Source: a virus
Taxonomy: Duplodnaviria; Caudoviricetes
Direction: 5' to 3' (one strand)
DNA: 64,000 nt
IMG/VR virus record: IMGVR_UViG_3300032007_001727
Shown here: positions 1 through 62,016 of the stretch, piece by piece
Layout of the letters: every line of letters starts with the position of its first letter
Position numbering within the stretch: the first letter of the stretch is position 1
Translations under genes and position numbers: made by a program
The notes under the pieces: generated by a model
What the model saw: the letters and a program-made list of their open reading frames with translations, nothing else
Databases searched by the model: none
What the model was told of the DNA's origin: nothing

Positions 1-522
1 TTCCACCCCCCCCCCCCATTTTTCTGTAAACTAACACTTGAGAATGGTTCCGTTGTTGAGTTACAAGGAAGCGGCGAACTGACAAGTACAATGATAGAAC
101 CATATAGATATGACTTTGTCAGTGCTGAAATCGGTGAACTTTGCATAAGCATTGGTGATGGTGCTTTTGTTACATGTTATTTATCAAGTATAACCTTTTC
201 AAATACCGTTACAAGTATTGGTTCTGAGGCTTTTGACCATTGTGAAGGTTTAACGTCCGTAACGATTCCGGACGGTGTCATAACCATTAGTGATTTTGCT
301 TTTAATAATTGCTCTGCAATGACATCTTGTTATCTTGGTAATAATGTCACAACAATTGGTGAATTTTCTTTCGCAAACTGCCCAATCCTAACATCTATAA
401 ATATTCCAAATAGCATTACAAGTATTAGTAATGGTGCTTTCTGTGATTCTAATTCATTGGATGCTGCAAGCACGGCAGCAATATCTGCAATTAATCCAAA
501 TGCATTAAGATGCGACGCATAA
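1..522 (+). CDS. BspA-type leucine-rich-repeat (LRR_5) protein, 5'-truncated by window edge; C12 tract at 6-17
   Basis: Frame 1 is open from base 1 (FHPPPPFFCKLTLENGSVVELQGSGELT...) into the listed ORF 91..522. It has TSIGxxAFxxCxxLTSIxIP repeats and is homologous to 3788..4462 and 59839..60655. Confidence 0.85.
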   Translation, partial: FHPPPPFFCKLTLENGSVVELQGSGELTSTMIEPYRYDFVSAEIGELCISIGDGAFVTCYLSSITFSNTVTSIGSEAFDHCEGLTSVTIPDGVITISDFAFNNCSAMTSCYLGNNVTTIGEFSFANCPILTSINIPNSITSISNGAFCDSNSLDAASTAAISAINPNALRCDA

Positions 523-3242: not shown

Positions 3243-3638
3243 TCATTCTGAATCTGATGACGGTATGTGAGATTGAGTTACGTCATCCAATCGCTTAGTT
3301 AAGAAATCATAGTTGGAGAGGCTTCCGAATTTGCTTATTTTGTTATAATACCAATCTGTCAAGGCTTGTTTTAAGAACCCGTCTCTTTCTTTTTTGTCTG
3401 ATATTAAATCAAGAAAGTCTCTTTCCAAAATGTCAAGTACGTCTTGTTCCCAATAGGATATATCAGTTGGCAGTGAATTATTGAGTTTGACAAATATTGC
3501 GATGTTCTTGCCGCCTTTTTCAAGTGCCGCCCTCATAAAATTCTTGTCTAGATAATCCTTGACCAACATAACCTTATCGCCATAAGATTCATTTATTATA
3601 TTTTTTAATCCATTTTCAGATAAAATAAACCTTTTCAT
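3243..3638 (-). CDS. Hypothetical protein with leader MKRFILSENGLKNIINE
   Basis: ORF; ATATTTAT motif on minus strand at 3660-3667. Confidence 0.65.
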   Translation of the reverse strand: MKRFILSENGLKNIINESYGDKVMLVKDYLDKNFMRAALEKGGKNIAIFVKLNNSLPTDISYWEQDVLDILERDFLDLISDKKERDGFLKQALTDWYYNKISKFGSLSNYDFLTKRLDDVTQSHIPSSDSE

Positions 3639-3728: not shown

Positions 3729-3787
3729 ATATTCATAATATTTATTGTTAAAATAACTTAATTTAAATCTTTAAAAAACAAATAATT

Positions 3788-4462
3788 ATGAAGTACGTTA
3801 AAGAATTTGCAGATAACGCAGCCTATACTGCTTATACTGCCACGGACTATCCAAAGCCAAACGTATCACTTTGTGTTGCTGAGGGTGATGTCCACTATAA
3901 TCCTACCCCCCCCCCATTATGTAAGTTAACCCTTAAGAATGGTGAAGTTGTGAGACTTGAAGGCAGTGGAACACTAACAAGTGCAATGACAAGTCCATAT
4001 AGCGCAACTTGTGTTAGTGCTGAAATAGGTAAGCCTTGCACAAGCATTGGCAATCGGGCTTTCTATCTATGTACTAGTTTATCAAGCATAACAATCCCGG
4101 ACAGTGTTACAAGCATTGGTGATGTTGCTTTCCATGATTGTCGTAGTTTATCGAGTATAACAATTCCGGACAGTGTTACAAGCATTGGTAGTAGTGCTTT
4201 CTATGCTTGTTCCGGTTTAACAAGCATAAACATTCCAAGTGGTGTTACAAGCATTGGTGATTATGCTTTCCGAGATTGTTTTAGTTTATCAGCAATAACC
4301 TCGTTTGCCACAACAGCACCAAGAATATATAATTATACTTTCCAAAATGTTAAGACCGGTGGTACTCTTACGGTTCCAATTGGTAGCAGCGGCTATAACA
4401 CTTGGATGGGAACGGGTACTTATTACCTAGGTTATTATAATTGGACAAAGGTCGAACAATAA
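3788..4462 (+). CDS. BspA-type LRR protein, intact (ON state); C10 tract at 3906-3915
   Basis: Leader MKYVKEFA...NVSLCVAEGDVHYNPTPPPLCKLTL, followed by SITIPDSVTSIGxxAFxxC repeats. Confidence 0.9.
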   Translation: MKYVKEFADNAAYTAYTATDYPKPNVSLCVAEGDVHYNPTPPPLCKLTLKNGEVVRLEGSGTLTSAMTSPYSATCVSAEIGKPCTSIGNRAFYLCTSLSSITIPDSVTSIGDVAFHDCRSLSSITIPDSVTSIGSSAFYACSGLTSINIPSGVTSIGDYAFRDCFSLSAITSFATTAPRIYNYTFQNVKTGGTLTVPIGSSGYNTWMGTGTYYLGYYNWTKVEQ

Positions 4463-4544: not shown

Positions 4545-7043
4545 CTAGTTTATTGATATTGTGTTATTTGAACAAGTTGCGTGGAAGACATACCCGTTTG
4601 GATAATCATTCGATAGCATTAATTCGGTTAATCCATCCTCCATTTCCGTTTCAATCAGCCTTATAATTGGCCTTGCCCCCATTTCCTTGTCTTCAATCGC
4701 CTTTGAATATATATAATCTACAACATCATCTGTATATTCAATGTTATAATTAATATTATTTAATTTATTATTAAATTTATTAATCTCTAACTTAACTATA
4801 TCTTTTAAATTATTGTCTGATAAGTTATTAAAATATATTATCTTGTTAATTCTATTAAGGAATTCCGGTGTAAATTTCCTCTTAAGTTCCTTGCTGATAA
4901 TGTCTTTCTTGTTTGAATCCTCATTTGGGTTAAAGCCGAGACCGTTTCCCAATTCTGACGCTCTCCTAGCACCTATGTTTGAAGTCATTATGAATATGCA
5001 GTTATGACAATCGATTAGGTTTCCGTTATTTTCCGTCAGCCTTCCTTCGTCGAACACTTGAAGGAAAACATTATAGATGGATTCATCGGCTTTTTCAATC
5101 TCATCCAACAACACAACCGAATAAGGCTTCTGCTTAATTGCGTTGGTAAGAACGCCACCGTCATCATATCCGATATACCCGGCACTAGCACCATAAAGTT
5201 TGCTTACGGAATTCTTCTCCGAATATTCAGACATATCGATTCTAATGAGAGATTTCTCGCTTCCGTAAATCTCTTCGGCTATCTTCTTTGCCAATAGAGA
5301 CTTTCCGACACCGGTTGGTCCAAGTAACAAGAACGTACCTAGACAAGATGACTTGTCACTTAATCCGACCTTGTTTCTCTTTATTACCTTGCACACATCA
5401 TTGATTGCATCGTCTTGGCCGACAATATACTTCTTCAAGACCTCATCTATCTTTGCAATCCTTTCCTTTTCAGACATCGATAACTTGCTTACCGGTATGT
5501 TGACCATATCTGAAACGGTTTCAGCCACATCGTCCTCAGAAACAATAATCGGGTTGGAAGAGTCGTGATTTCTAGACCTTTTATATTCCGCAACATCACT
5601 TGCCAATACGTTGCCTTCAGCATTTAGGGTGTCTATTTTCTCAAAATCACCATTATTCAACGCATCATCTTTCTCTCGGTTTATTTCTCTTATTCGTTTC
5701 TTGATATTCTTTATTAACTGAGGTTCATCGTTTTTCATTGAAATGCTTGCACCGACCAAGTCTATGACATCAAATGCTGAATCCGGCAAGGCTCTGTCCG
5801 TAATATACCTTTCAGCCAAGTCAACCGCCTTTTTAATAACGCTGCGGTCATATATTACATTATGAAAGTCTTCATAATAATATTTTGCCTTGTCTATTAT
5901 TTCAACAGTATCAGCATTGCTTGATGGTTCAATCGTCAGTTTTTGGAATTTCCTAGACAAAGATGAATTGTTTTCTATGGTGTTTCTGTAATCCTTGAAT
6001 GTGGTGGCACATATTACCTTTACGGTTCCGTCTGTCAGAATATCACCGACCATCCCGCTAATGTCAGCATCCTTTTCTTTTCCACCACCCCTTAACACGG
6101 TATGAATATCATCAATAAACAAGATATATTTCTTTGATTTCTTTAATTCCGTGAAGAGACCGTTGACTCTTTCTTCGAACATACCCCTAAAATGAGTTCC
6201 GCTAACCAATGTCATCGGGTTTAACATTACGATTTCCTTTCCTTCCAACTGTTCCGGAACCTCCCCGTCGATAATCTTTTTGGCTAACTTATATACCATG
6301 GATGTCTTTCCGCATCCTCCGACACCAACCAATATCACATTGTTCTTTTTCCTGCGGCATAAGACTTTTATCATTTCGGTGAACTCTCTGTCACGCCCGA
6401 TTATATCGTCAGTCTTGCCCTCTGAAACTAATTTGCTGATATTAATTGTAAATTGTTGTATGTATTCTCCTTGCGGTATTGATGATATCATCTTCGGATT
6501 CACTTGACTCTTTAATTCCATTTGTGCCATCTTGTTTGGTTTTATTTTCTTTGGTTGTGCCTTATTCTCTTTTTTTGTTGGGTTTGACGGGTTACATTTA
6601 TCGAATATGAATTTATATTCTAACCTAAATTTACCGAATATATTATATTCCGAGAACCCGTTTTCTTTATTCAGTACCGCCAAAAGTACGTGCTCACTGC
6701 CTATATTTCTAGACTTTAGTTTATCGGCTTCAACCCTAGCACATTCAATTGCCTTTATCAAGTCATCGCTGTATGGATAAATTCCATGGTTACCCTTTAG
6801 TTGGGGCTTTGTGTACTTGTCCAAGACCGAAACATAGATTTTCCTCAATTCTTCAATATTTTCAGACATTAAGCAATTTTCAAGAATCATGTTTGCGTGA
6901 CAGTTCTTGTTATCCAATATAGATAAAATCAAATACTCAAGCGTTAAAATGTCTGTAGGGAACTCATCATATAAAGTAGAGGTCATATAACCAATAACTT
7001 CTTCAAGTTCCAATGTGTAATCTTCTCTTTTATATTCATTCAT
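4545..7043 (-). CDS. clpC: Clp/Hsp100 AAA+ ATPase (ClpC-type)
   Basis: Clp N-domain (EHVLLA), IIGRDRE, RRKKNN, Walker A GVGGCGKT and GPTGVGKS, RIDMSEY, LLDEIEKA, LGF loop, PEFLNRI, MGARP. Confidence 0.9.
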   Translation of the reverse strand: MNEYKREDYTLELEEVIGYMTSTLYDEFPTDILTLEYLILSILDNKNCHANMILENCLMSENIEELRKIYVSVLDKYTKPQLKGNHGIYPYSDDLIKAIECARVEADKLKSRNIGSEHVLLAVLNKENGFSEYNIFGKFRLEYKFIFDKCNPSNPTKKENKAQPKKIKPNKMAQMELKSQVNPKMISSIPQGEYIQQFTINISKLVSEGKTDDIIGRDREFTEMIKVLCRRKKNNVILVGVGGCGKTSMVYKLAKKIIDGEVPEQLEGKEIVMLNPMTLVSGTHFRGMFEERVNGLFTELKKSKKYILFIDDIHTVLRGGGKEKDADISGMVGDILTDGTVKVICATTFKDYRNTIENNSSLSRKFQKLTIEPSSNADTVEIIDKAKYYYEDFHNVIYDRSVIKKAVDLAERYITDRALPDSAFDVIDLVGASISMKNDEPQLIKNIKKRIREINREKDDALNNGDFEKIDTLNAEGNVLASDVAEYKRSRNHDSSNPIIVSEDDVAETVSDMVNIPVSKLSMSEKERIAKIDEVLKKYIVGQDDAINDVCKVIKRNKVGLSDKSSCLGTFLLLGPTGVGKSLLAKKIAEEIYGSEKSLIRIDMSEYSEKNSVSKLYGASAGYIGYDDGGVLTNAIKQKPYSVVLLDEIEKADESIYNVFLQVFDEGRLTENNGNLIDCHNCIFIMTSNIGARRASELGNGLGFNPNEDSNKKDIISKELKRKFTPEFLNRINKIIYFNNLSDNNLKDIVKLEINKFNNKLNNINYNIEYTDDVVDYIYSKAIEDKEMGARPIIRLIETEMEDGLTELMLSNDYPNGYVFHATCSNNTISIN

Positions 7044-25776: not shown

Positions 25777-28700
25777 ATGGCAAAAAGAAAATATACCGTC
25801 TTCCAAGCATTGGATAGGGCAATCACCGGTAATTGGGGCAAGCAAGATGCGTTGTCTTCGCACATCAACTCATATGACATGAGCAATAACGGTGATAAGG
25901 TTATCTATAGGACAGACAACAAGGAAGACTACCTTAATAAGAAGTTGGAACTTCAGCAGAACAAGTACCTTAGGGACAGATGGGTTAAGGCGGACGTGAA
26001 CTTGTCCGTAAGTGCATATTCCGGACTTAACAACATTAAGTTAATGTATCGTGATGCGGACTTGATGGATGCGTTTCCGGAAATAGGTGCGGCATTGGAC
26101 ATAGTTTCAGAAGAGTCTTGCATAAGCGACAGTTCCGGCAATTTGGTCAATATATACTCAAAGTCCGACAGAATAAAGCGAATACTTGAGGATTTGTTCG
26201 TAAACCGTTTGAACATTCAACTCACGGCACCTATGATAATTCGTGCCATGTGCAAATACGGAAACCAATTCATGCTTTTGGATATTGACAACCGCAATGG
26301 TGTCAAGGGATGGAAGCAACTCCCGGTGTTCAATGTTGAGAGGATTGAGAATGGTATTCAGAACCCGTATGGAACCGGTGGCATGTCTGTTTCGGTGAAC
26401 CAAGCGAACACAAATGACGTTGACATGTCCACACAGTTTATATGGTTGGATGACAACAATTCTCAGATACCGTTCAGAGATTGGCAAATCGCACATTTCC
26501 GGCTACTTAATAATTCCTTATACCTACCGTATGGGTGTTTGGTTGGTGATACTAGGGTTGAAACTGAATTTGGTTATAAGGAAATGTCCAATATAAACAT
26601 TGGTGATAAAGTGTGGACGTTTAACCTTAATTCTCAGAAAAGAGAGTTAGGCACTGTTTCTATGTTTATGCATAAAGGTGAAAAGGATGTTTATAAAGTT
26701 TCAACGCTTCATAATGAAATTGAAGGGACTGAAGACCATAAATTATTAACATATGACGGGAGTGATTTAGTATATAAAGAAATCAAAGAGATTAAAATTG
26801 GTGATTTACTCATTGTTGATAATTCTCATGACAAGTGTGATAATAAAATAAAAATTGATAAAACGTATCCATCTGAAAAAGAGGCGAATTTAAATAAATC
26901 AATGACTTGGTGGACGGATTATATTCATTTGATACCGGATTATGTCGATGAAGATTTCGCTAAATTTTTTGGCTTTATGGTTGGTGATGGGTGGGTTACA
27001 CAGTCAAAATATGTATATTTCGCCACTGGTGAATATGAGAAATTTAACATAGAATTTTACAAATATCTTGAGAAGATTACCGGACATAAAGTGTCGTTTA
27101 GAAGACCATTCATTAATGAAAATCATAATTATGAATATTCATGTTGTTTGGTTTGCTCAAAATGTTTGGCATTAATAATGCATAGGATGGGCTTCATTGA
27201 TGGATTTGATAAAAAAAGAGTACCTAGTTGGGTTTTTTCATCTAGTGATATAATTAAAAAATCATTTCTTGATGGACTCATGATTTCAGATGGCAGTTAT
27301 AATATTGATAAGTACAATATTTTAAGGTGTTCTTTAGAAATGGCCAACGAACAATTAATAAAAGACATCAAAACATTAGTTCAATCTTTAGGATATAAAT
27401 CTTCAAAAATATCAAATAGAAATAGGGTTGGAAAATGTAGCGCCTTGAAAAATGGATACAATATAATAACTAAAAACACCTCTTATTATTTCTATTTCTA
27501 TGAAAGTTACAATAAACAAGAAAAGAAATATGATTTGTCTAATAGATTAGAAAATGGTTTTAAGACAGAAAAGGTGAAAAAAATAGAATATGTTGGTAAA
27601 AAACAAACATATGATTTCACTGTAAATAATGAGAATAGTAATTTTTTCGCAAATGGTATTGTAACGCACAATTGTTCTTATCTTAATGCTGCAAGAAGAC
27701 ATTGGCGTATGTTGAGCCTCATGGAGGACATGATGTTGATTTATCGTCTTGAGCGCTCTGTCGAAAGAAGGGTGTATAAGATTTATGTTGGTGCCATTGA
27801 TGACGCGGACGTGCAAGCATATGTCGAGCAGATTGCAAATCAGTTCAAGAGAACACCAATCATTGACCCGATGACCGGGCAGATTGATTTGAGAAAGAAC
27901 ATCTTATCGGTCGATAACGATGTCTTTCTTCCGGTGAGAGACGAGAATGCTAGCACACCTATTGACACACTTTCAGCGGGTCAGAACATGACGGCTTTGG
28001 ATGACATAAAGTTTGTTCAGAACAAGGTGCTTACCGCGTTGAGGATACCAAAGACCTTCTTGAACTTCGAGGAACCGGCCGGAGAGGGGAAAAACCTTGC
28101 ATTGATGGATGTTAGGTTCACTAGGACGGTGAACAGAATACAGCAAGCGTTTCTGATGGAATTGACAAAGGTTGCGTCAATACACTTGTTCTTGTTGGGC
28201 TTCAACGATGAACTCAATAATTTTGCATTGTCGATGAATAATCCGTCCACGCAAGCGGAGGGTTTGGAAATCGATAACATTCAGAAGAAGATTGACGCGG
28301 TTAGGGATGCTGTGTCAGACCCCGGAAACGGAATACCGGTTATGTCACAGACTCGCGCATTAAAGCAGATTATGAAGTGGTCTGAAAAGGAAATCAAGGA
28401 GAACTTTGAGGAGATTCGTCTTGAAAAGGGTATTGCGGCAGAGTTGGAGAAAACGACACAGATTATCAAGAAGACCGGAATCTTTGATACAGTTGACAGA
28501 ATCTATGGCGAACCCGGTGCGGAATACGCCGATGATGTGCAAGGACAAGGAGAAATGGGCGGAGGACCAAGTATGGGTGGCGGTCCAAGTGGTGGCATGG
28601 GAGCACCGCCTCCACCACCTCCAACCGGAGAAATCGGCGAAGACTTGGGTAATATGGGAAGCCCGATGGACAATGGAAACGGTGGTGAGATTTCCGGTGC

Positions 28701-28905
28701 CGAGGCTTCAATTCCTACCTCTCAAATGGGACAAGAGGGTATGCCTCCAATGGAATCCATATACAAGAACGGAAAGCCGTTGATTAATGAGAGCGTGCTT
28801 AAGCGTGCGGAAGTGTATGACAAGGAATCGCTTATGATAAACGAGGAATTCGACAAGATGATTAAGGCCCTTGAACAATTCTCCTTGGAGGATGTCAAAG
28901 AATAA
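25777..28905 (+). CDS. Portal protein (T4 gp20-like) interrupted by an intein
   Basis: PEIGAALDIVSEE, MEDMMLIYRLERS.ERRVY, PIDTLSAG, ALRIPK, RFTRTVNRIQ. Confidence 0.9.
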   Translation: MAKRKYTVFQALDRAITGNWGKQDALSSHINSYDMSNNGDKVIYRTDNKEDYLNKKLELQQNKYLRDRWVKADVNLSVSAYSGLNNIKLMYRDADLMDAFPEIGAALDIVSEESCISDSSGNLVNIYSKSDRIKRILEDLFVNRLNIQLTAPMIIRAMCKYGNQFMLLDIDNRNGVKGWKQLPVFNVERIENGIQNPYGTGGMSVSVNQANTNDVDMSTQFIWLDDNNSQIPFRDWQIAHFRLLNNSLYLPYGCLVGDTRVETEFGYKEMSNINIGDKVWTFNLNSQKRELGTVSMFMHKGEKDVYKVSTLHNEIEGTEDHKLLTYDGSDLVYKEIKEIKIGDLLIVDNSHDKCDNKIKIDKTYPSEKEANLNKSMTWWTDYIHLIPDYVDEDFAKFFGFMVGDGWVTQSKYVYFATGEYEKFNIEFYKYLEKITGHKVSFRRPFINENHNYEYSCCLVCSKCLALIMHRMGFIDGFDKKRVPSWVFSSSDIIKKSFLDGLMISDGSYNIDKYNILRCSLEMANEQLIKDIKTLVQSLGYKSSKISNRNRVGKCSALKNGYNIITKNTSYYFYFYESYNKQEKKYDLSNRLENGFKTEKVKKIEYVGKKQTYDFTVNNENSNFFANGIVTHNCSYLNAARRHWRMLSLMEDMMLIYRLERSVERRVYKIYVGAIDDADVQAYVEQIANQFKRTPIIDPMTGQIDLRKNILSVDNDVFLPVRDENASTPIDTLSAGQNMTALDDIKFVQNKVLTALRIPKTFLNFEEPAGEGKNLALMDVRFTRTVNRIQQAFLMELTKVASIHLFLLGFNDELNNFALSMNNPSTQAEGLEIDNIQKKIDAVRDAVSDPGNGIPVMSQTRALKQIMKWSEKEIKENFEEIRLEKGIAAELEKTTQIIKKTGIFDTVDRIYGEPGAEYADDVQGQGEMGGGPSMGGGPSGGMGAPPPPPPTGEIGEDLGNMGSPMDNGNGGEISGAEASIPTSQMGQEGMPPMESIYKNGKPLINESVLKRAEVYDKESLMINEEFDKMIKALEQFSLEDVKE
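26536..27672 (+). mobile_element. Intein (379 aa) with LAGLIDADG homing endonuclease
   Basis: PYG|CLVGDT...TEDHK...FFGFMVGDGW...FLDGLMISDGS...YDFTV...NGIVTHN|C; more AT-rich than the flanks. Confidence 0.93.
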
Positions 28906-35311: not shown

Positions 35312-37336
35312 ATGAAAGAATTTTTATCAAGTGGTGTAGTTGGAAATATTGAGTACAACGCACAAAAACAGATACGTGAAAGCATTCAGAACCGTTGGGA
35401 ACAACTCGGTTTCACCGAGGGTTTACCGGATGGTATCAAGGAGAATGTCGCTACTCTGTACGAGAACGAGGCAAAGCACTTGATTTACGAGGCTACTGCT
35501 TCAGACAACAGCGGTTCGTTTGAGACCGTTGTATTCCCTATCATCCGTAGGGTATTCAGCAAGTTACTTGCTAATGACATTGTTTCGGTTCAAGCAATGA
35601 ACCTCCCCGTTGGTAAGTTGTTCTTCATCCTCCCGGTTACTTCGGAGAGAGAGTGGGAACTTCCGGAGGGTTCTACGGCTGAACCCGGTGACATTGTAGA
35701 TGGTACTACCGGCCGTCATAAGGGTCTCATGGGCTACGACCGCGTTAACCGCAACAAGGAGGGTCGTGTTGAGCCTCGCTACTATCTCCCGGACGAGACA
35801 ATCAATGACTTACAGAACGCTTGGTACATTCCGGTTCTGAGCGAGACCACAACCTATGACACGTTCGAGGCTGCTAAGGCTGCTGCTGAGGCCGCAGGTC
35901 TTACCCCAACTTCCATTCGCAGGGTTGGTCCGGAAGTGACTGAATACTTCCAAAAGAGCCTTTACGACTTGTTCTACAACGACTTCTTGTATGACAACTC
36001 AAAGGGTATGGTGACCATTAAGGTCGGCAACGCAATTCCCGTTATCATGACACCCGGCGGCATGCGTCCATTCGGTGACGGTGGTCAGTTAGGTGCTACC
36101 TATTTCAAGAGCGGCTTCGACGGCACAGTCCGTAACCTCGTTATTGAGATTGACGGTTTCTCTTCCTTCAACGCAAGCAAGTTAACCGGTCCGGACGGTA
36201 ACGAAATGGACACTGAAGGCTTCTTGGCTTCTCTTAAGGTTATCACTCAGAAGGAGTTCGCCGCTGCTGATGCTCCGGGTTCTGACGGTGTGAAGACCGC
36301 TGCCTTCCGTAAGTTTGAGTCCGTTCCTTTCCGTGTTGCAACACAGAAGTATGGCAAGGGCATTGTAGAGTATGGTTCTGCTTGTGACGCTGAGGGTAAG
36401 ATGTATCTTGAACTCGACCTCGCAAAACCTGTTATTCAGCAAGCCGGTACCATTGATGGTTACATTGGCGTAGCACCGGAGGCTTTGAATGCCGTTGTTG
36501 ACAAGGCTAACCCTGAGGCTACCAAGGAAGCAATGAAGAGCCTCTTCAAGATTGCTTGGGCACAGTATGACTCTCTCGAACTCGAAACCGAAATCGGTGA
36601 GGTTTCCTTCAAGTTGGACTCCGTTACCGTTTCCGTTGAGGAGAGAAAACTCCGTGCAACTTGGTCGCCGGAGTTGGCACAAGACGTTTCCGCTTTCCAT
36701 AACATTGACGCTGAGGCTGAGTTGACCGCAATCCTCTCTGAGCAGATTGCTGCTGAGATTGACCGTGAGATTCTCCGCGACCTCCGTAAGGGCGCACCTT
36801 GGCAAGCACGTTGGGACGTGAACGGTTGGAGACGTATGGCTGCTTTCTCCACGAACTACACTCAGAAGGACTGGAACCAAGAACTCGCAACGAAGATTAA
36901 TCAGATTTCTGCTCAGATTCAGAAGTCAACTCTCCGTGGCGGTGCCAACTTCATTGTTATCTCCTCTGAGATTAGTGCTCTCTTCAACAACCTTGAGTAC
37001 TTCCACGTGACGGACGCAAGCGCTGAGAGCGACCAATATAACATGGGTATTGAGAAGATTGGTTCTCTGAACGCACGTTATACGGTATATGTTGACCCAT
37101 ATAGCCCACATTGGTCCATCATCGTTGGTCACAAGGGTAAGAGTTTGCTCGACACCGGTTACATTTATGCACCTTATGTTCCAATGCAATTAACTCCTAC
37201 CATGTTCAATCCATTCAACTTTGCCCCGGTAAAGGGTATTATGACACGTTACGCTAAGAAAATGGTGAACAACAAATACTATGGTCACGTTCGAGTGGAT
37301 GGACTCGTTCATTGGAGTATCAATGAGTTTAGATAA
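35312..37336 (+). CDS. Major capsid protein (T4 gp23-like)
   Basis: FPIIRRV...VSVQAM..P.G, RKLRATWSPELAQDV.AFHNIDAEAEL..ILSEQIAAEIDREIL, YAPYVP, GIMTRY. Confidence 0.95.
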   Translation: MKEFLSSGVVGNIEYNAQKQIRESIQNRWEQLGFTEGLPDGIKENVATLYENEAKHLIYEATASDNSGSFETVVFPIIRRVFSKLLANDIVSVQAMNLPVGKLFFILPVTSEREWELPEGSTAEPGDIVDGTTGRHKGLMGYDRVNRNKEGRVEPRYYLPDETINDLQNAWYIPVLSETTTYDTFEAAKAAAEAAGLTPTSIRRVGPEVTEYFQKSLYDLFYNDFLYDNSKGMVTIKVGNAIPVIMTPGGMRPFGDGGQLGATYFKSGFDGTVRNLVIEIDGFSSFNASKLTGPDGNEMDTEGFLASLKVITQKEFAAADAPGSDGVKTAAFRKFESVPFRVATQKYGKGIVEYGSACDAEGKMYLELDLAKPVIQQAGTIDGYIGVAPEALNAVVDKANPEATKEAMKSLFKIAWAQYDSLELETEIGEVSFKLDSVTVSVEERKLRATWSPELAQDVSAFHNIDAEAELTAILSEQIAAEIDREILRDLRKGAPWQARWDVNGWRRMAAFSTNYTQKDWNQELATKINQISAQIQKSTLRGGANFIVISSEISALFNNLEYFHVTDASAESDQYNMGIEKIGSLNARYTVYVDPYSPHWSIIVGHKGKSLLDTGYIYAPYVPMQLTPTMFNPFNFAPVKGIMTRYAKKMVNNKYYGHVRVDGLVHWSINEFR

Positions 37337-41788: not shown

Positions 41789-42325
41789 ATGGCAACCATA
41801 CAATTCAATAATAAATCGACTAGAAGAGTCCCGATACATAGAAACAACCTATTCTATGATGAGGCATCATTCGCCTTTGAAAGGGAGGTTGGTAAGAACT
41901 ATGTTGAACAAGACATGGGACAGACCGTTGTACTGTACCAAGTTGACGCTTCAAAGACACAGTCTGACTCGGTATACGGTGAAACAAATTCAAACGGGGT
42001 GAAATATAAAATTCCGGTTGAGATTCCTTGCGTCTATAGAATAGATGAGCCGGAACTGATGGCATATGACAAGGAGAAGAACTTGGGTACCTATATGAAA
42101 CCCGGAAAAATAACGGTTGGTGTGTATCCGGAGACATTGAAGGAACTTGGTGTCGAGGCAAAAAAAGGTGATTATATTATGATACAAGTCACAGAGGAAC
42201 ACTCTGAATACTTTGTTTTAAATGCAATCAACGAAGGATATGCAAATGCTCATAGCCTTTGGGGGCGAAGACTGTGGATTACTTGGGAAGGATATAACGT
42301 TGATGCTAGTGAATTTAATGGGTAA
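41789..42325 (+). CDS. Putative neck/head-completion (gp14-like) protein
   Basis: Late motif at 41753; DSVYGE...P.EIP...KKGDYI pattern (inference). Confidence 0.5.
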   Translation: MATIQFNNKSTRRVPIHRNNLFYDEASFAFEREVGKNYVEQDMGQTVVLYQVDASKTQSDSVYGETNSNGVKYKIPVEIPCVYRIDEPELMAYDKEKNLGTYMKPGKITVGVYPETLKELGVEAKKGDYIMIQVTEEHSEYFVLNAINEGYANAHSLWGRRLWITWEGYNVDASEFNG

Positions 42326-42411
42326 AAAAAAAAATAATATTAACTATTGAAGATTATTTAAAAGTTCATAATATTTATTTAAAAATAACGAAATAAATAC
42401 ATAAAAACAAT

Positions 42412-59802: not shown

Positions 59803-59832
59803 AACGGCAACACAATTAAGTGCTGCCGTTTT
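59803..59832. terminator. Bidirectional terminator
   Basis: AACGGCAACAC...GTGCTGCCGTT. Confidence 0.65.
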
Positions 59833-59838
59833 TTATTG

Positions 59839-60655
59839 TTATTGTTCAACCTTGGTCCAACCATACTTACCTAAGTAATAATCACCACTTCCCATCCAAA
59901 CGTCATAGCCGCTGCTACCTTGTGGAACATAGAGAGTACCATCGGACCCGACATTGCCGAAAGTAGTATTTGCTATTGTTGGTGCTGTTGCTGCAAGTGA
60001 AGTTATTGCTGATAAACTAGAACAACCATTGAAGGCATTTTGACCAATGTTTGTAACACCACTTGGAATGTTTATACTTGATAAACTACGACAACCACTG
60101 AAAGTATAATTACCAATGATTGTAACGCTGTCCGGAATTGTTATACTTGATAAACTAGAACAATAAGCGAAAACATTATTATCAATGTTTGTAACACCAC
60201 TTGGTATTGTTATGCTTGATAAATTAGAACAACTAGCGAAAACATTATTACCAATGCTTGTAACACTGTCCGGAATTGTTATACTTGATAAACCAGTACA
60301 TTGAAGGAAAGCACTATTACCAATGTTTGTAATACCATTTGGTATTGTTATGCTTGATAAACTAGAACAATAACCGAAAGCCACCGCACCAATACTTGTG
60401 CAAAGTGTACCAACTTCAACACTGACACAAGTTGCGCTGTAACCGCTTATCATTGCTCTTGTAAGTTCTCCACTACCCTCGATATCAACAACCTCACCGT
60501 TTCGCAAAGTTAATTTACAGAAGAAGGGGGGGGGGGGTAGGATTGTAATGCACATCATCCTCAGCAACACAAAGTGATACATTTGGTTTTGGGTAGTCCG
60601 TGGCAACGTATGCTGTATAATCAGCATGTGTTGCAAATTCTTTAACGTACTTCAT
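59839..60655 (-). CDS. BspA-type LRR protein frameshifted (OFF) at a C12 tract (G12 at 60526-60537)
   Basis: True start ATG 60655 gives MKYVKEFATHADYTAYVATDYPKPNVSLCVAEDDVHYNPTPPPLLL* (TAA 60517-60515). C11 or C14 would restore the frame into FFCKLTLRNGEVV plus the LRRs. Confidence 0.85.
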
Positions 60656-60741
60656 AATTTTTAAATAAAAGTTTTTTTTTAATTAAGTTATTATTTCTTT
60701 ATATAAATATTGAAAAATTTTTAAAAATCTTTATTTTTTAA

Positions 60742-62016
60742 ATGCAAAATTCCATAAATACTGTAATGCGAAACAAAGGTGTACGTTTAAATGAAGAAGA
60801 AGCCTTAAGAAACATTAAAGACAAATGTAATGAGAGGGGTGTTGAGTTCATTGGTTTTGACAATGAAACAAATTCCTATATAAATAATAAGACATATTTG
60901 ATTTTAAGATGTAATAAATGTAATAAGATTTGGAAAACAACGACATATGATAAATTTGTAAGGTATAATAGGTCTTGTCCTAATTGTTCTAGAACAAAAA
61001 AAGTGACACTTGATGAATTAATTTCAAACACACTTGAATTATGTGAAGAAAAAGAATTTACATTCTTGGGTATAAGTGGTCCCTTTAAAGGCGTGAGAAC
61101 TAAATTGAAATTAAAATGCAATAGATGTGGTTATGAATGGCATACGACAACATACGTAAATCTAATAAAAAAGGACAGAAAAAGTCATTCGTGCAATAAA
61201 AGAAACCCATTGTATTCAACTGTAGGATTAAGAAGTGATAAAGCAACCAAAAGAGTTTTGGACTCATTAAAAGAAACTTCCCTTGAATTTGTATCCTTTA
61301 AAGATGGTGAATATATTGGATTCAATAAAACTAAAGTAATTCTAAAATGTAAAAAATGTAATAAGTTGAATGAATATTCTTTTTCTTATATCTGTAGTCA
61401 TAATATTTCTTGTAAATATTGCGAATATAATGGGAAGATTTCAAATGAGGCCGCAATTAAGATAATTGAAGACAAGTGCAAGGATTTAAATTATACTTTT
61501 TTAGGGTTTAAGACAATTGACGGAAGATATGATGGAAAGGATACTTATTTAATTTTAAAATGTAATAAATGTGGTAGAATTACTGATAGTACGAAGTTTT
61601 ATGTATTTGTCAATAGGGGGATAAAGTGCTTAAACTGTTCTAGGACTTGGAAAATGGAAGATGAAATTAAAACATTCCTTGATAAGGAAAAAATTGATTA
61701 TATTTATGACTGTAGGTCTAGGGTACTTCCTTGGCTTAAAAATAGAATATCATTGTCATTGGATTTTTATCTCCCAAAATATAATACTGCCATAGAATGT
61801 CAAGGCATTCAGCACTTCGAACCTAGTTCTTTTTATGGTGGTGAAAAGGAATTTGTCAAAACTTGTGATAGGGACAAGAGAAAACTCCTCCTATGCAAGG
61901 AAAACAATGTAACATTGCTCTATTACGACAGTGAGACACAACATCAATCCTTCTTGGGGGAAGTGGTTTTCAAGGATGTAAATAATTTATTTAAAGAAAT
62001 ATTAAAAAATGGATAA
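60742..62016 (+). CDS. Putative homing endonuclease (CxxC repeats + Vsr/PD-(D/E)xK-like domain)
   Basis: LxCNKC...CxxC repeats; LDFYLPKYNTAIECQGIQHF. Confidence 0.78.
   Translation: MQNSINTVMRNKGVRLNEEEALRNIKDKCNERGVEFIGFDNETNSYINNKTYLILRCNKCNKIWKTTTYDKFVRYNRSCPNCSRTKKVTLDELISNTLELCEEKEFTFLGISGPFKGVRTKLKLKCNRCGYEWHTTTYVNLIKKDRKSHSCNKRNPLYSTVGLRSDKATKRVLDSLKETSLEFVSFKDGEYIGFNKTKVILKCKKCNKLNEYSFSYICSHNISCKYCEYNGKISNEAAIKIIEDKCKDLNYTFLGFKTIDGRYDGKDTYLILKCNKCGRITDSTKFYVFVNRGIKCLNCSRTWKMEDEIKTFLDKEKIDYIYDCRSRVLPWLKNRISLSLDFYLPKYNTAIECQGIQHFEPSSFYGGEKEFVKTCDRDKRKLLLCKENNVTLLYYDSETQHQSFLGEVVFKDVNNLFKEILKNG

Follow-up and report, generated by a model that had tools for sequence, protein, structure and literature searches.

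Poly-C tracts and probable phase variation in a putative adhesin gene family of an uncultured rumen jumbo phage

A gene for an LRR protein in an uncultured rumen jumbo phage is interrupted by a run of 12 cytosines, and the anatomy of the locus and its relatives points to slipped-strand phase variation, with the gene probably being one switchable member of a multi-copy family of phage LRR binding proteins (putative adhesins). Phase variation is a textbook bacterial trick, and to our knowledge it has been shown experimentally in phages only for Campylobacter phages and, recently, T-even phages. Here, we describe the gene, termed copyC, with its paralogues copyA and copyB, all located in one window of 64,000 nucleotides (the whole stretch of phage DNA that was analyzed; IMG/VR record IMGVR_UViG_3300032007_001727), and compare them with further copies from the same genome and from other cattle-rumen metagenomes.

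Results

copyC lies on the minus strand. Its leader open reading frame, as now read, starts with an ATG at 60655 and ends after 46 amino acids and a stop (60515 to 60655). It contains a C12 tract at 60526 to 60537 (G12 on the plus strand), the candidate switch, which is part of the Pro linker joining the leader module to the LRR body. Residues 1 to 39 of the leader peptide form a conserved N-terminal module (MKYVKEFATHADY...VHYNP), followed by TPPP, LLL, and the stop; the Thr-Pro-Pro-Pro is encoded by an A (60538) and the 12 cytosines (60537 to 60526). The LRR body (59839 to 60525) is open for 228 codons (60525 to 59842; stop codon, 59841 to 59839) and is offset by +1 relative to the leader frame. 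At C12 the product is a 46-aa stub, and the fused product would be 271 aa long at C11 and 272 aa long at C14.

These data bear out the reading of the locus given in the original prediction. The 265-aa protein of the open reading frame track (TTG at 60636) was called an artefact there, and its first ~37 residues do read leader DNA in the wrong frame. The true start was placed at 60655, with a near match to the leader of the copy at 3788 (copyB), with which we found 83% nucleotide identity and 38/43 identical residues (5 of 43 differing). The claimed stop after 46 aa, caused by C12, was confirmed; the downstream frame is offset by +1, so that C11 or C14 restores a single open reading frame. The downstream LRR region, said to be intact over about 220 codons, has 228 open codons and no other lesion. 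Gene callers begin a 238-aa product at an internal ATG (60555). We considered this ATG as the start of a leaderless form but do not regard it as a design feature, since it stems from Asp-Asp codons and the corresponding copyB frame hits a stop.

The body of copyC begins with FFCKLTLRNGEVV and comprises an FFCKLTL N-cap, six 23-residue BspA-type LRR units, and a C-cap ending in WTKVEQ; it matches PF13306 (LRR_5) with 178 bits (E, 8e-53; cut-off, 27.7). The units are visible in the DNA as a tandem periodicity of 69 bp (5.4 copies, 76% matches) at 60010 to 60381 on the minus strand. copyC has two LRR units more than copyB (60010 to 60381 versus 4040 to 4290), and repeat number probably changes by recombination or slippage, as a second axis of variation.

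An upstream motif, ATAACTTAATTWAAA (also written ATAACTTAATTAAAA), is found at 60677 to 60691 on the minus strand in an A/T-rich stretch 5' of the copyC ATG. Within the window it occurs only before copyC and copyB (3753 to 3767), and a contig from another rumen metagenome (L100) carries the near-identical ATAACTTAATTTAAA; it is possibly a shared promoter or 5' region of the cassette. A terminator-like hairpin (11 pairs, followed by a T-run; 59803 to 59830, minus strand) lies directly 3' of the stop codon, and copyC forms a cassette of a single gene, complete in itself. An A9 run (60672 to 60680, minus strand) also lies between the motif and the start codon, where copyB has only A6; it could be a second slippage-prone element, acting on spacing or expression.

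Exact-sequence look-up of the window proteins led to two contigs, one of 366,366 bp (ENA ERZ27256887) and one of 366,743 bp (JGI). copyB (3788 to 4462, plus strand) is the ON paralogue, with a C10 tract in frame at 3906 to 3915, a product of 224 aa, and a match of 114 bits to LRR_5. copyA (1 to 522, plus strand) is cut by the window start; it has a C12 tract at 6 to 17 and an LRR body open to 522, and the first 34 bases read in frame 2 give STPPPHFSVN and a stop. The 366,366-bp ENA contig, which shares the gene order of the window, has a 48-aa leader peptide (P0236) recorded at 112 bases before the window start, and STPPPHFSVN forms the C-terminus of this peptide; copyA is thus OFF too and would come into frame at C10 or C13. 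The same genome holds at least four in-frame members (copyB, which is P0125, and P0042, P0123, and P0009) and four truncated leaders (P0121, which is copyC; P0236, which is copyA; P0235; and P0237). The exact 46-aa copyC stub is recorded on both assemblies, and the ON form of copyC was never seen. Exact look-up returned no gene records for P0122 (a truncated leader described below), a 663-aa neighbor, or copyB, and no near-identical forms of P0009 were found.

Jumbo-phage genes in the window include those for a portal protein (25777 to 28905), the major head protein (35312 to 37336), and a ClpB-like ATPase, as well as homing-endonuclease-like genes. Next to copyC are genes for 497-aa and 1,046-aa proteins without a family, a CapR-type endonuclease, glycosyltransferases, and an IMPDH-like protein; no clear structural-module context was found among these neighbors. 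Elsewhere in the genome, the in-frame member P0042 adjoins a gp25-like baseplate gene. Three neighbors of LRR cassettes were recorded in more detail. Divergent from copyC (60742 to 62016, plus strand) lies a gene whose 424-aa product combines three CapR homology domains with a PHROG HNH/homing-endonuclease match, and similar DUF723/CapR genes adjoin other LRR cassettes on the 366-kb contig. Next to copyB lies a gene for an 832-aa ClpB/Hsp104-type double AAA+ ATPase (AAA_2, AAA_lid_9, ClpB_D2-small; 4545 to 7043, minus strand). Just before copyA, ~0.4 to 1.7 kb upstream of the window start, is one for a 429-aa tyrosyl-tRNA synthetase (tRNA-synt_1b, SYY C-terminal domain).

An AlphaFold2 model of copyB (pLDDT, 95; 24-sequence alignment) has three parts, namely a small alpha/beta module (strand 5 to 7, helix 10 to 19, hairpin 26 to 37), the Pro linker, and an LRR solenoid capped at its C-terminus. 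The solenoid resembles TpLRR (6mlx; Foldseek E, 8e-6), gut-bacterial LRR_5 structures, and many phage LRR proteins in BFVD. The leader module had no Pfam match even at E ≤ 1, and the ESM Atlas gave sub-threshold leads only (0.76; a cluster with 39% Phage_tail_C). By inspection, the N-terminus is polar and without the hydrophobic core of a signal peptide. In related phages, the same ~40-residue module heads other C-terminal domains: at locus L013 (1501 to 2208; record G002, a ~410-kb phage) it precedes a Lcl_C/Fib_succ_major-like lectin domain, proteins of the P0005 type join it to an Ig-like segment and LRR, and composite or non-LRR payloads also occur in P0010 and P0014. This arrangement suggests that the N-terminal module serves as a common adaptor onto which different binding domains can be fitted. 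The LRR proteins are most likely adhesins, docked to the virion through this module.

The placement of the tract is far from random. Runs of C or G in the window number 13 at length 5 and none at lengths 6 to 9, and then come single tracts of 10, 12, and 12; the three runs of at least 10 compare with 0.04 expected from shuffles. All three lie at the same leader/LRR junction of copyA, copyB, and copyC, and a chance origin of the tract is excluded. CCC is, moreover, the rarest Pro codon of the window (39/452, or 8.6%, in 29 long open reading frames). Relatives with the same PP/PPP linker (e.g., ...HYNPVPPPFFCKLTL) use CCA, CCG, and CCT only, with CCC at 0/20 positions in eight readable loci. Because relatives write the same linker without CCC, the poly-C run is a feature at the DNA level and not a protein requirement. 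Among 98 related loci (240 kb), none had a C/G run of at least 7 at the junction, two related ~410-kb phage genomes have no C9 anywhere, and the tract was absent from 80 loci of a JGI metagenome scan (identity at most 69%). The homopolymer therefore arose, and is kept, in one lineage. Two other homopolymers were recorded. A related IMG/VR contig (L003) has a G8 run at 3456 to 3463, inside the leader (coding N-G-G-G) and not at the linker, and this run may be of independent origin within the family. The longest A or T run in the window is A11 (42324 to 42334).

Searches with the copyC locus by blastn against 50,697 phage records gave no match, and IMG/VR gave none to the exact leader 22-mer or to the junction pattern with C9. 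A looser HYN..C9 pattern in IMG/VR returned two contigs (L105 and L106), which we rejected as unrelated chance matches. The junction pattern was not found in GTDB genomes, and the protein collection held no near-identical homologue of the copyC body (best, 63%).

Tract length differs among related contigs. Five small contigs from other cattle-rumen metagenomes have the same leader and junction, with C10 in L100 and L101, C9 in L102 and L103, and C11 in L104, all out of frame. The downstream frames of L100 to L103, the four that were measured, are open to the contig end over 253, 291, 109, and 195 codons, and that of L104 appears, by eye, open to the contig end as well. These off forms came from a search able to return only short truncated leaders, so that the all-off state is a matter of ascertainment, and lengths of 10 to 12 taken from short-read assemblies are somewhat uncertain. 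L101 (C10) and L102/L103 (C9) are homologous, with shared flanks ccaC(n)[g/a]cctttctttgttaa; L101 and L103 are ~70% identical, and the C10/C9 difference is thus one between diverged strains or paralogues, not clones. P0122 (48 aa; a 53,754-bp JGI contig) shares its leader with P0009, which is in frame on the ENA contig, and its tail, PPPHSSVS, is what the P0009 codons would yield after the loss of one C. Only the ENA contig lists P0236 and P0009, so that, judging from source lists rather than DNA, the two ~366-kb assemblies seem to differ in these genes with tracts.

The same tracts could be explained by slippage in expression, through RNA polymerase stuttering on the run or tRNA-Pro slipping on CCC. 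Off copies would then be translated at a reduced level, with the tract as a dimmer or fixed recoding signal and DNA length changes secondary. Such slippage would fit with about half of the copies in one genome being out of frame yet conserved. A stretch of 9 to 12 identical bases is sufficient for slippage in transcription, and CCC-C is known to be prone to +1 shifts. The copies do not, however, need the same correction: the required shift is +1 in copyC, L100, and L102/L103 and −1 in copyA, L101, and P0122, and the others are simply in frame. Nor was an Rfam frameshift element found after the tract, or any consistent, stimulatory RNA structure in the 90 nucleotides that follow it (z, +0.6, +0.4, −0.4, −1.6, and −1.8), and the length differences between related contigs are present in the DNA itself. 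We consider expression-level slippage unlikely as the explanation of the tract; it is compatible with a DNA switch and may leave off copies leaky.

A miscounted homopolymer would remove the frameshift altogether, the true tract being C11 (or C14), the gene in frame, and C12 an error of sequencing or assembly. Short-read sequencing and assembly are at their weakest in long G/C homopolymers. Against this, the same 46-aa product occurs on two assemblies (366,366 and 366,743 bp), and at least eight junction tracts, drawn from five further contigs or paralogues, are likewise out of frame and differ in length. An error is not credible as their common source because a consensus error rate near one half would be required, and we hold a miscount in copyC to be very unlikely.

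Between copyB and copyC, the leader gave dN of 0.086, dS of 0.82, and omega of 0.10. The LRR bodies of paralogue pairs gave omega of 0.46 to 0.59. When they were divided, scaffold positions had omega of 0.37 to 0.44 and the x positions of I-G-x-x-A-F-x-x-C-x-x had 5.3 (24 codons) and 1.9 (36 codons), a split that is indicative only, given 24 to 36 codons and positions picked after the repeats had been seen. Pairwise dN/dS cannot isolate the branch of copyC itself. The original prediction had named dN/dS of the sequence behind the tract as a check on its reading, and the most telling comparison is that of L101 with L103, both off (dS, 0.63), where omega was 0.50 (bootstrap, 0.34 to 0.78; 0/300 replicates of at least 1). 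By these estimates, the coding sequence behind an off tract is under purifying selection.

Selection of this kind bears on the idea that copyC is a redundant paralogue newly killed by a frameshift and that the tract is a mere mutational hotspot. With many paralogues, the loss of one would be costless, and no further lesions would be expected behind a recent frameshift. Against decay, all 228 codons of the body are open, the promoter-region motif and the terminator are retained, and the tract is built of an otherwise avoided codon at the same site in every copy. Besides omega of 0.10 in the leader and 0.37 to 0.44 in the scaffold, the value of 0.50 between two diverged off copies indicates a body kept as protein coding, unlike what decay predicts, and decay is thus extremely unlikely. 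The lesion-free body had been put forward as an argument for reversible switching; the direction of that argument is backed by independent evidence (tract placement and codon choice, C9, C10, and C11 in related contigs, and purifying selection), but taken alone it is weak, as a fresh frameshift looks alike. A programmed ribosomal frameshift, with a fixed direction and a stimulatory element, was rejected as improbable because a single shift direction would not serve all copies.

Phase variation by slippage in the DNA remains the probable reading, and copyC has several features of a contingency locus. A slippable repeat (about at least 8 G/C) lies inside the coding region, a one-unit change would toggle between a full-length and a truncated product, and the gene behind the repeat is kept functional (228 open codons, with the omega values above). 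We propose that the phage carries dispersed single-gene cassettes, each joining the ~40-residue module through a Pro linker to a BspA-type LRR domain with hypervariable repeat positions, the linker being, in this phage lineage, a pure C run of 9 to 12 bases. Slipped-strand mispairing during replication would add a base to the run or remove one. In consequence, each copy would switch, in a heritable and reversible way, from a fused, functional protein (ON) to a ~46-aa stub with an untranslated body (OFF) and back. copyC at C12 would be OFF, one deletion away from ON, and a phage burst would hold particles or infections with differing LRR subsets, as a form of bet-hedging.

A wider version, which we advance only tentatively, is a combinatorial and stochastic display, in which about ten or more poly-C cassettes switch independently and present differing LRR or other heads on the virion through the shared docking module. 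In such a display, off copies may also set free a docking stub, which would compete for the docking site. If true, one genome would give rise to hundreds of particle types differing in adhesion or host range, in effect a viral version of the Neisseria Opa repertoire to which VLR-like LRR diversification is added.

Discussion

The copyC locus suggests that uncultured rumen jumbo phages use phase variation on a whole family of LRR binding proteins, and the switch gives a concrete way to test how these phages deal with host variability. It also has a consequence for annotation. Gene callers split such genes into a ~46-aa orphan and an LRR protein with a wrong N-terminus, and phage adhesin repertoires are therefore systematically misannotated.

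Among bacteria, the Neisseria opa genes (CTCTT repeats in the leader) and pilC (poly-G) are contingency adhesin families. The phage genes resemble them as a multi-copy, adhesin-like family in which each copy has its own 5' coding repeat; opa and pilC copies switch independently, and the subset that a bacterial clone expresses changes accordingly. They differ in that the bearer is a virus, the N-terminal part is a folded module of ~40 residues and not a signal peptide, and the homopolymer sits in a domain linker. With BspA-type LRR proteins (PF13306; TpLRR, 6mlx; BACOVA_04585, 4fs7) they share an HMM match far above threshold and a predicted solenoid fold. Unlike BspA-type surface proteins, they have no visible signal peptide or cell-wall/outer-membrane sorting domain, and a phage-specific N-terminal module takes that place.

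Among phages, hypermutable polyG tracts are reported for genes of Campylobacter Fletchervirus phages (Sorensen 2021, Cell Rep 35:109214, as cited in PMC10877375). The two systems are alike in having G/C homopolymers in several coding genes of a phage; in the Campylobacter phages, which are lytic, a length change reportedly shifts the frame and yields phenotypically mixed progeny, which is read as bet-hedging against variable host surfaces. They differ in that no sequence relationship is seen, that the phage described here is a ~366-kb rumen jumbo phage known from sequence alone, and that its tracts occupy one homologous Pro-linker position of one expanded paralogue family. The contingency loci of T-even and other phages, T2 and T4 among them (Gomez, Barrick, Waters 2025, bioRxiv 10.1101/2025.10.21.683753), are coding simple-sequence repeats in which reversible frameshifts occur at a high rate and diversify the progeny. 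Those repeats are mostly A runs of at least 6, are found in all gene classes, and have indel frequencies of about 1e-4 to 1e-3 (10.1101/2025.10.21.683753). Here, unlike in T-even phages, the repeats are runs of 9 to 12 C, absent elsewhere in the window and present in one gene family only. The principle of phage phase variation is already established by the T2/T4 cases and by Fletchervirus; in the rumen phage, the confinement of the C runs to one family argues for a dedicated switch and not for a by-product of base composition.
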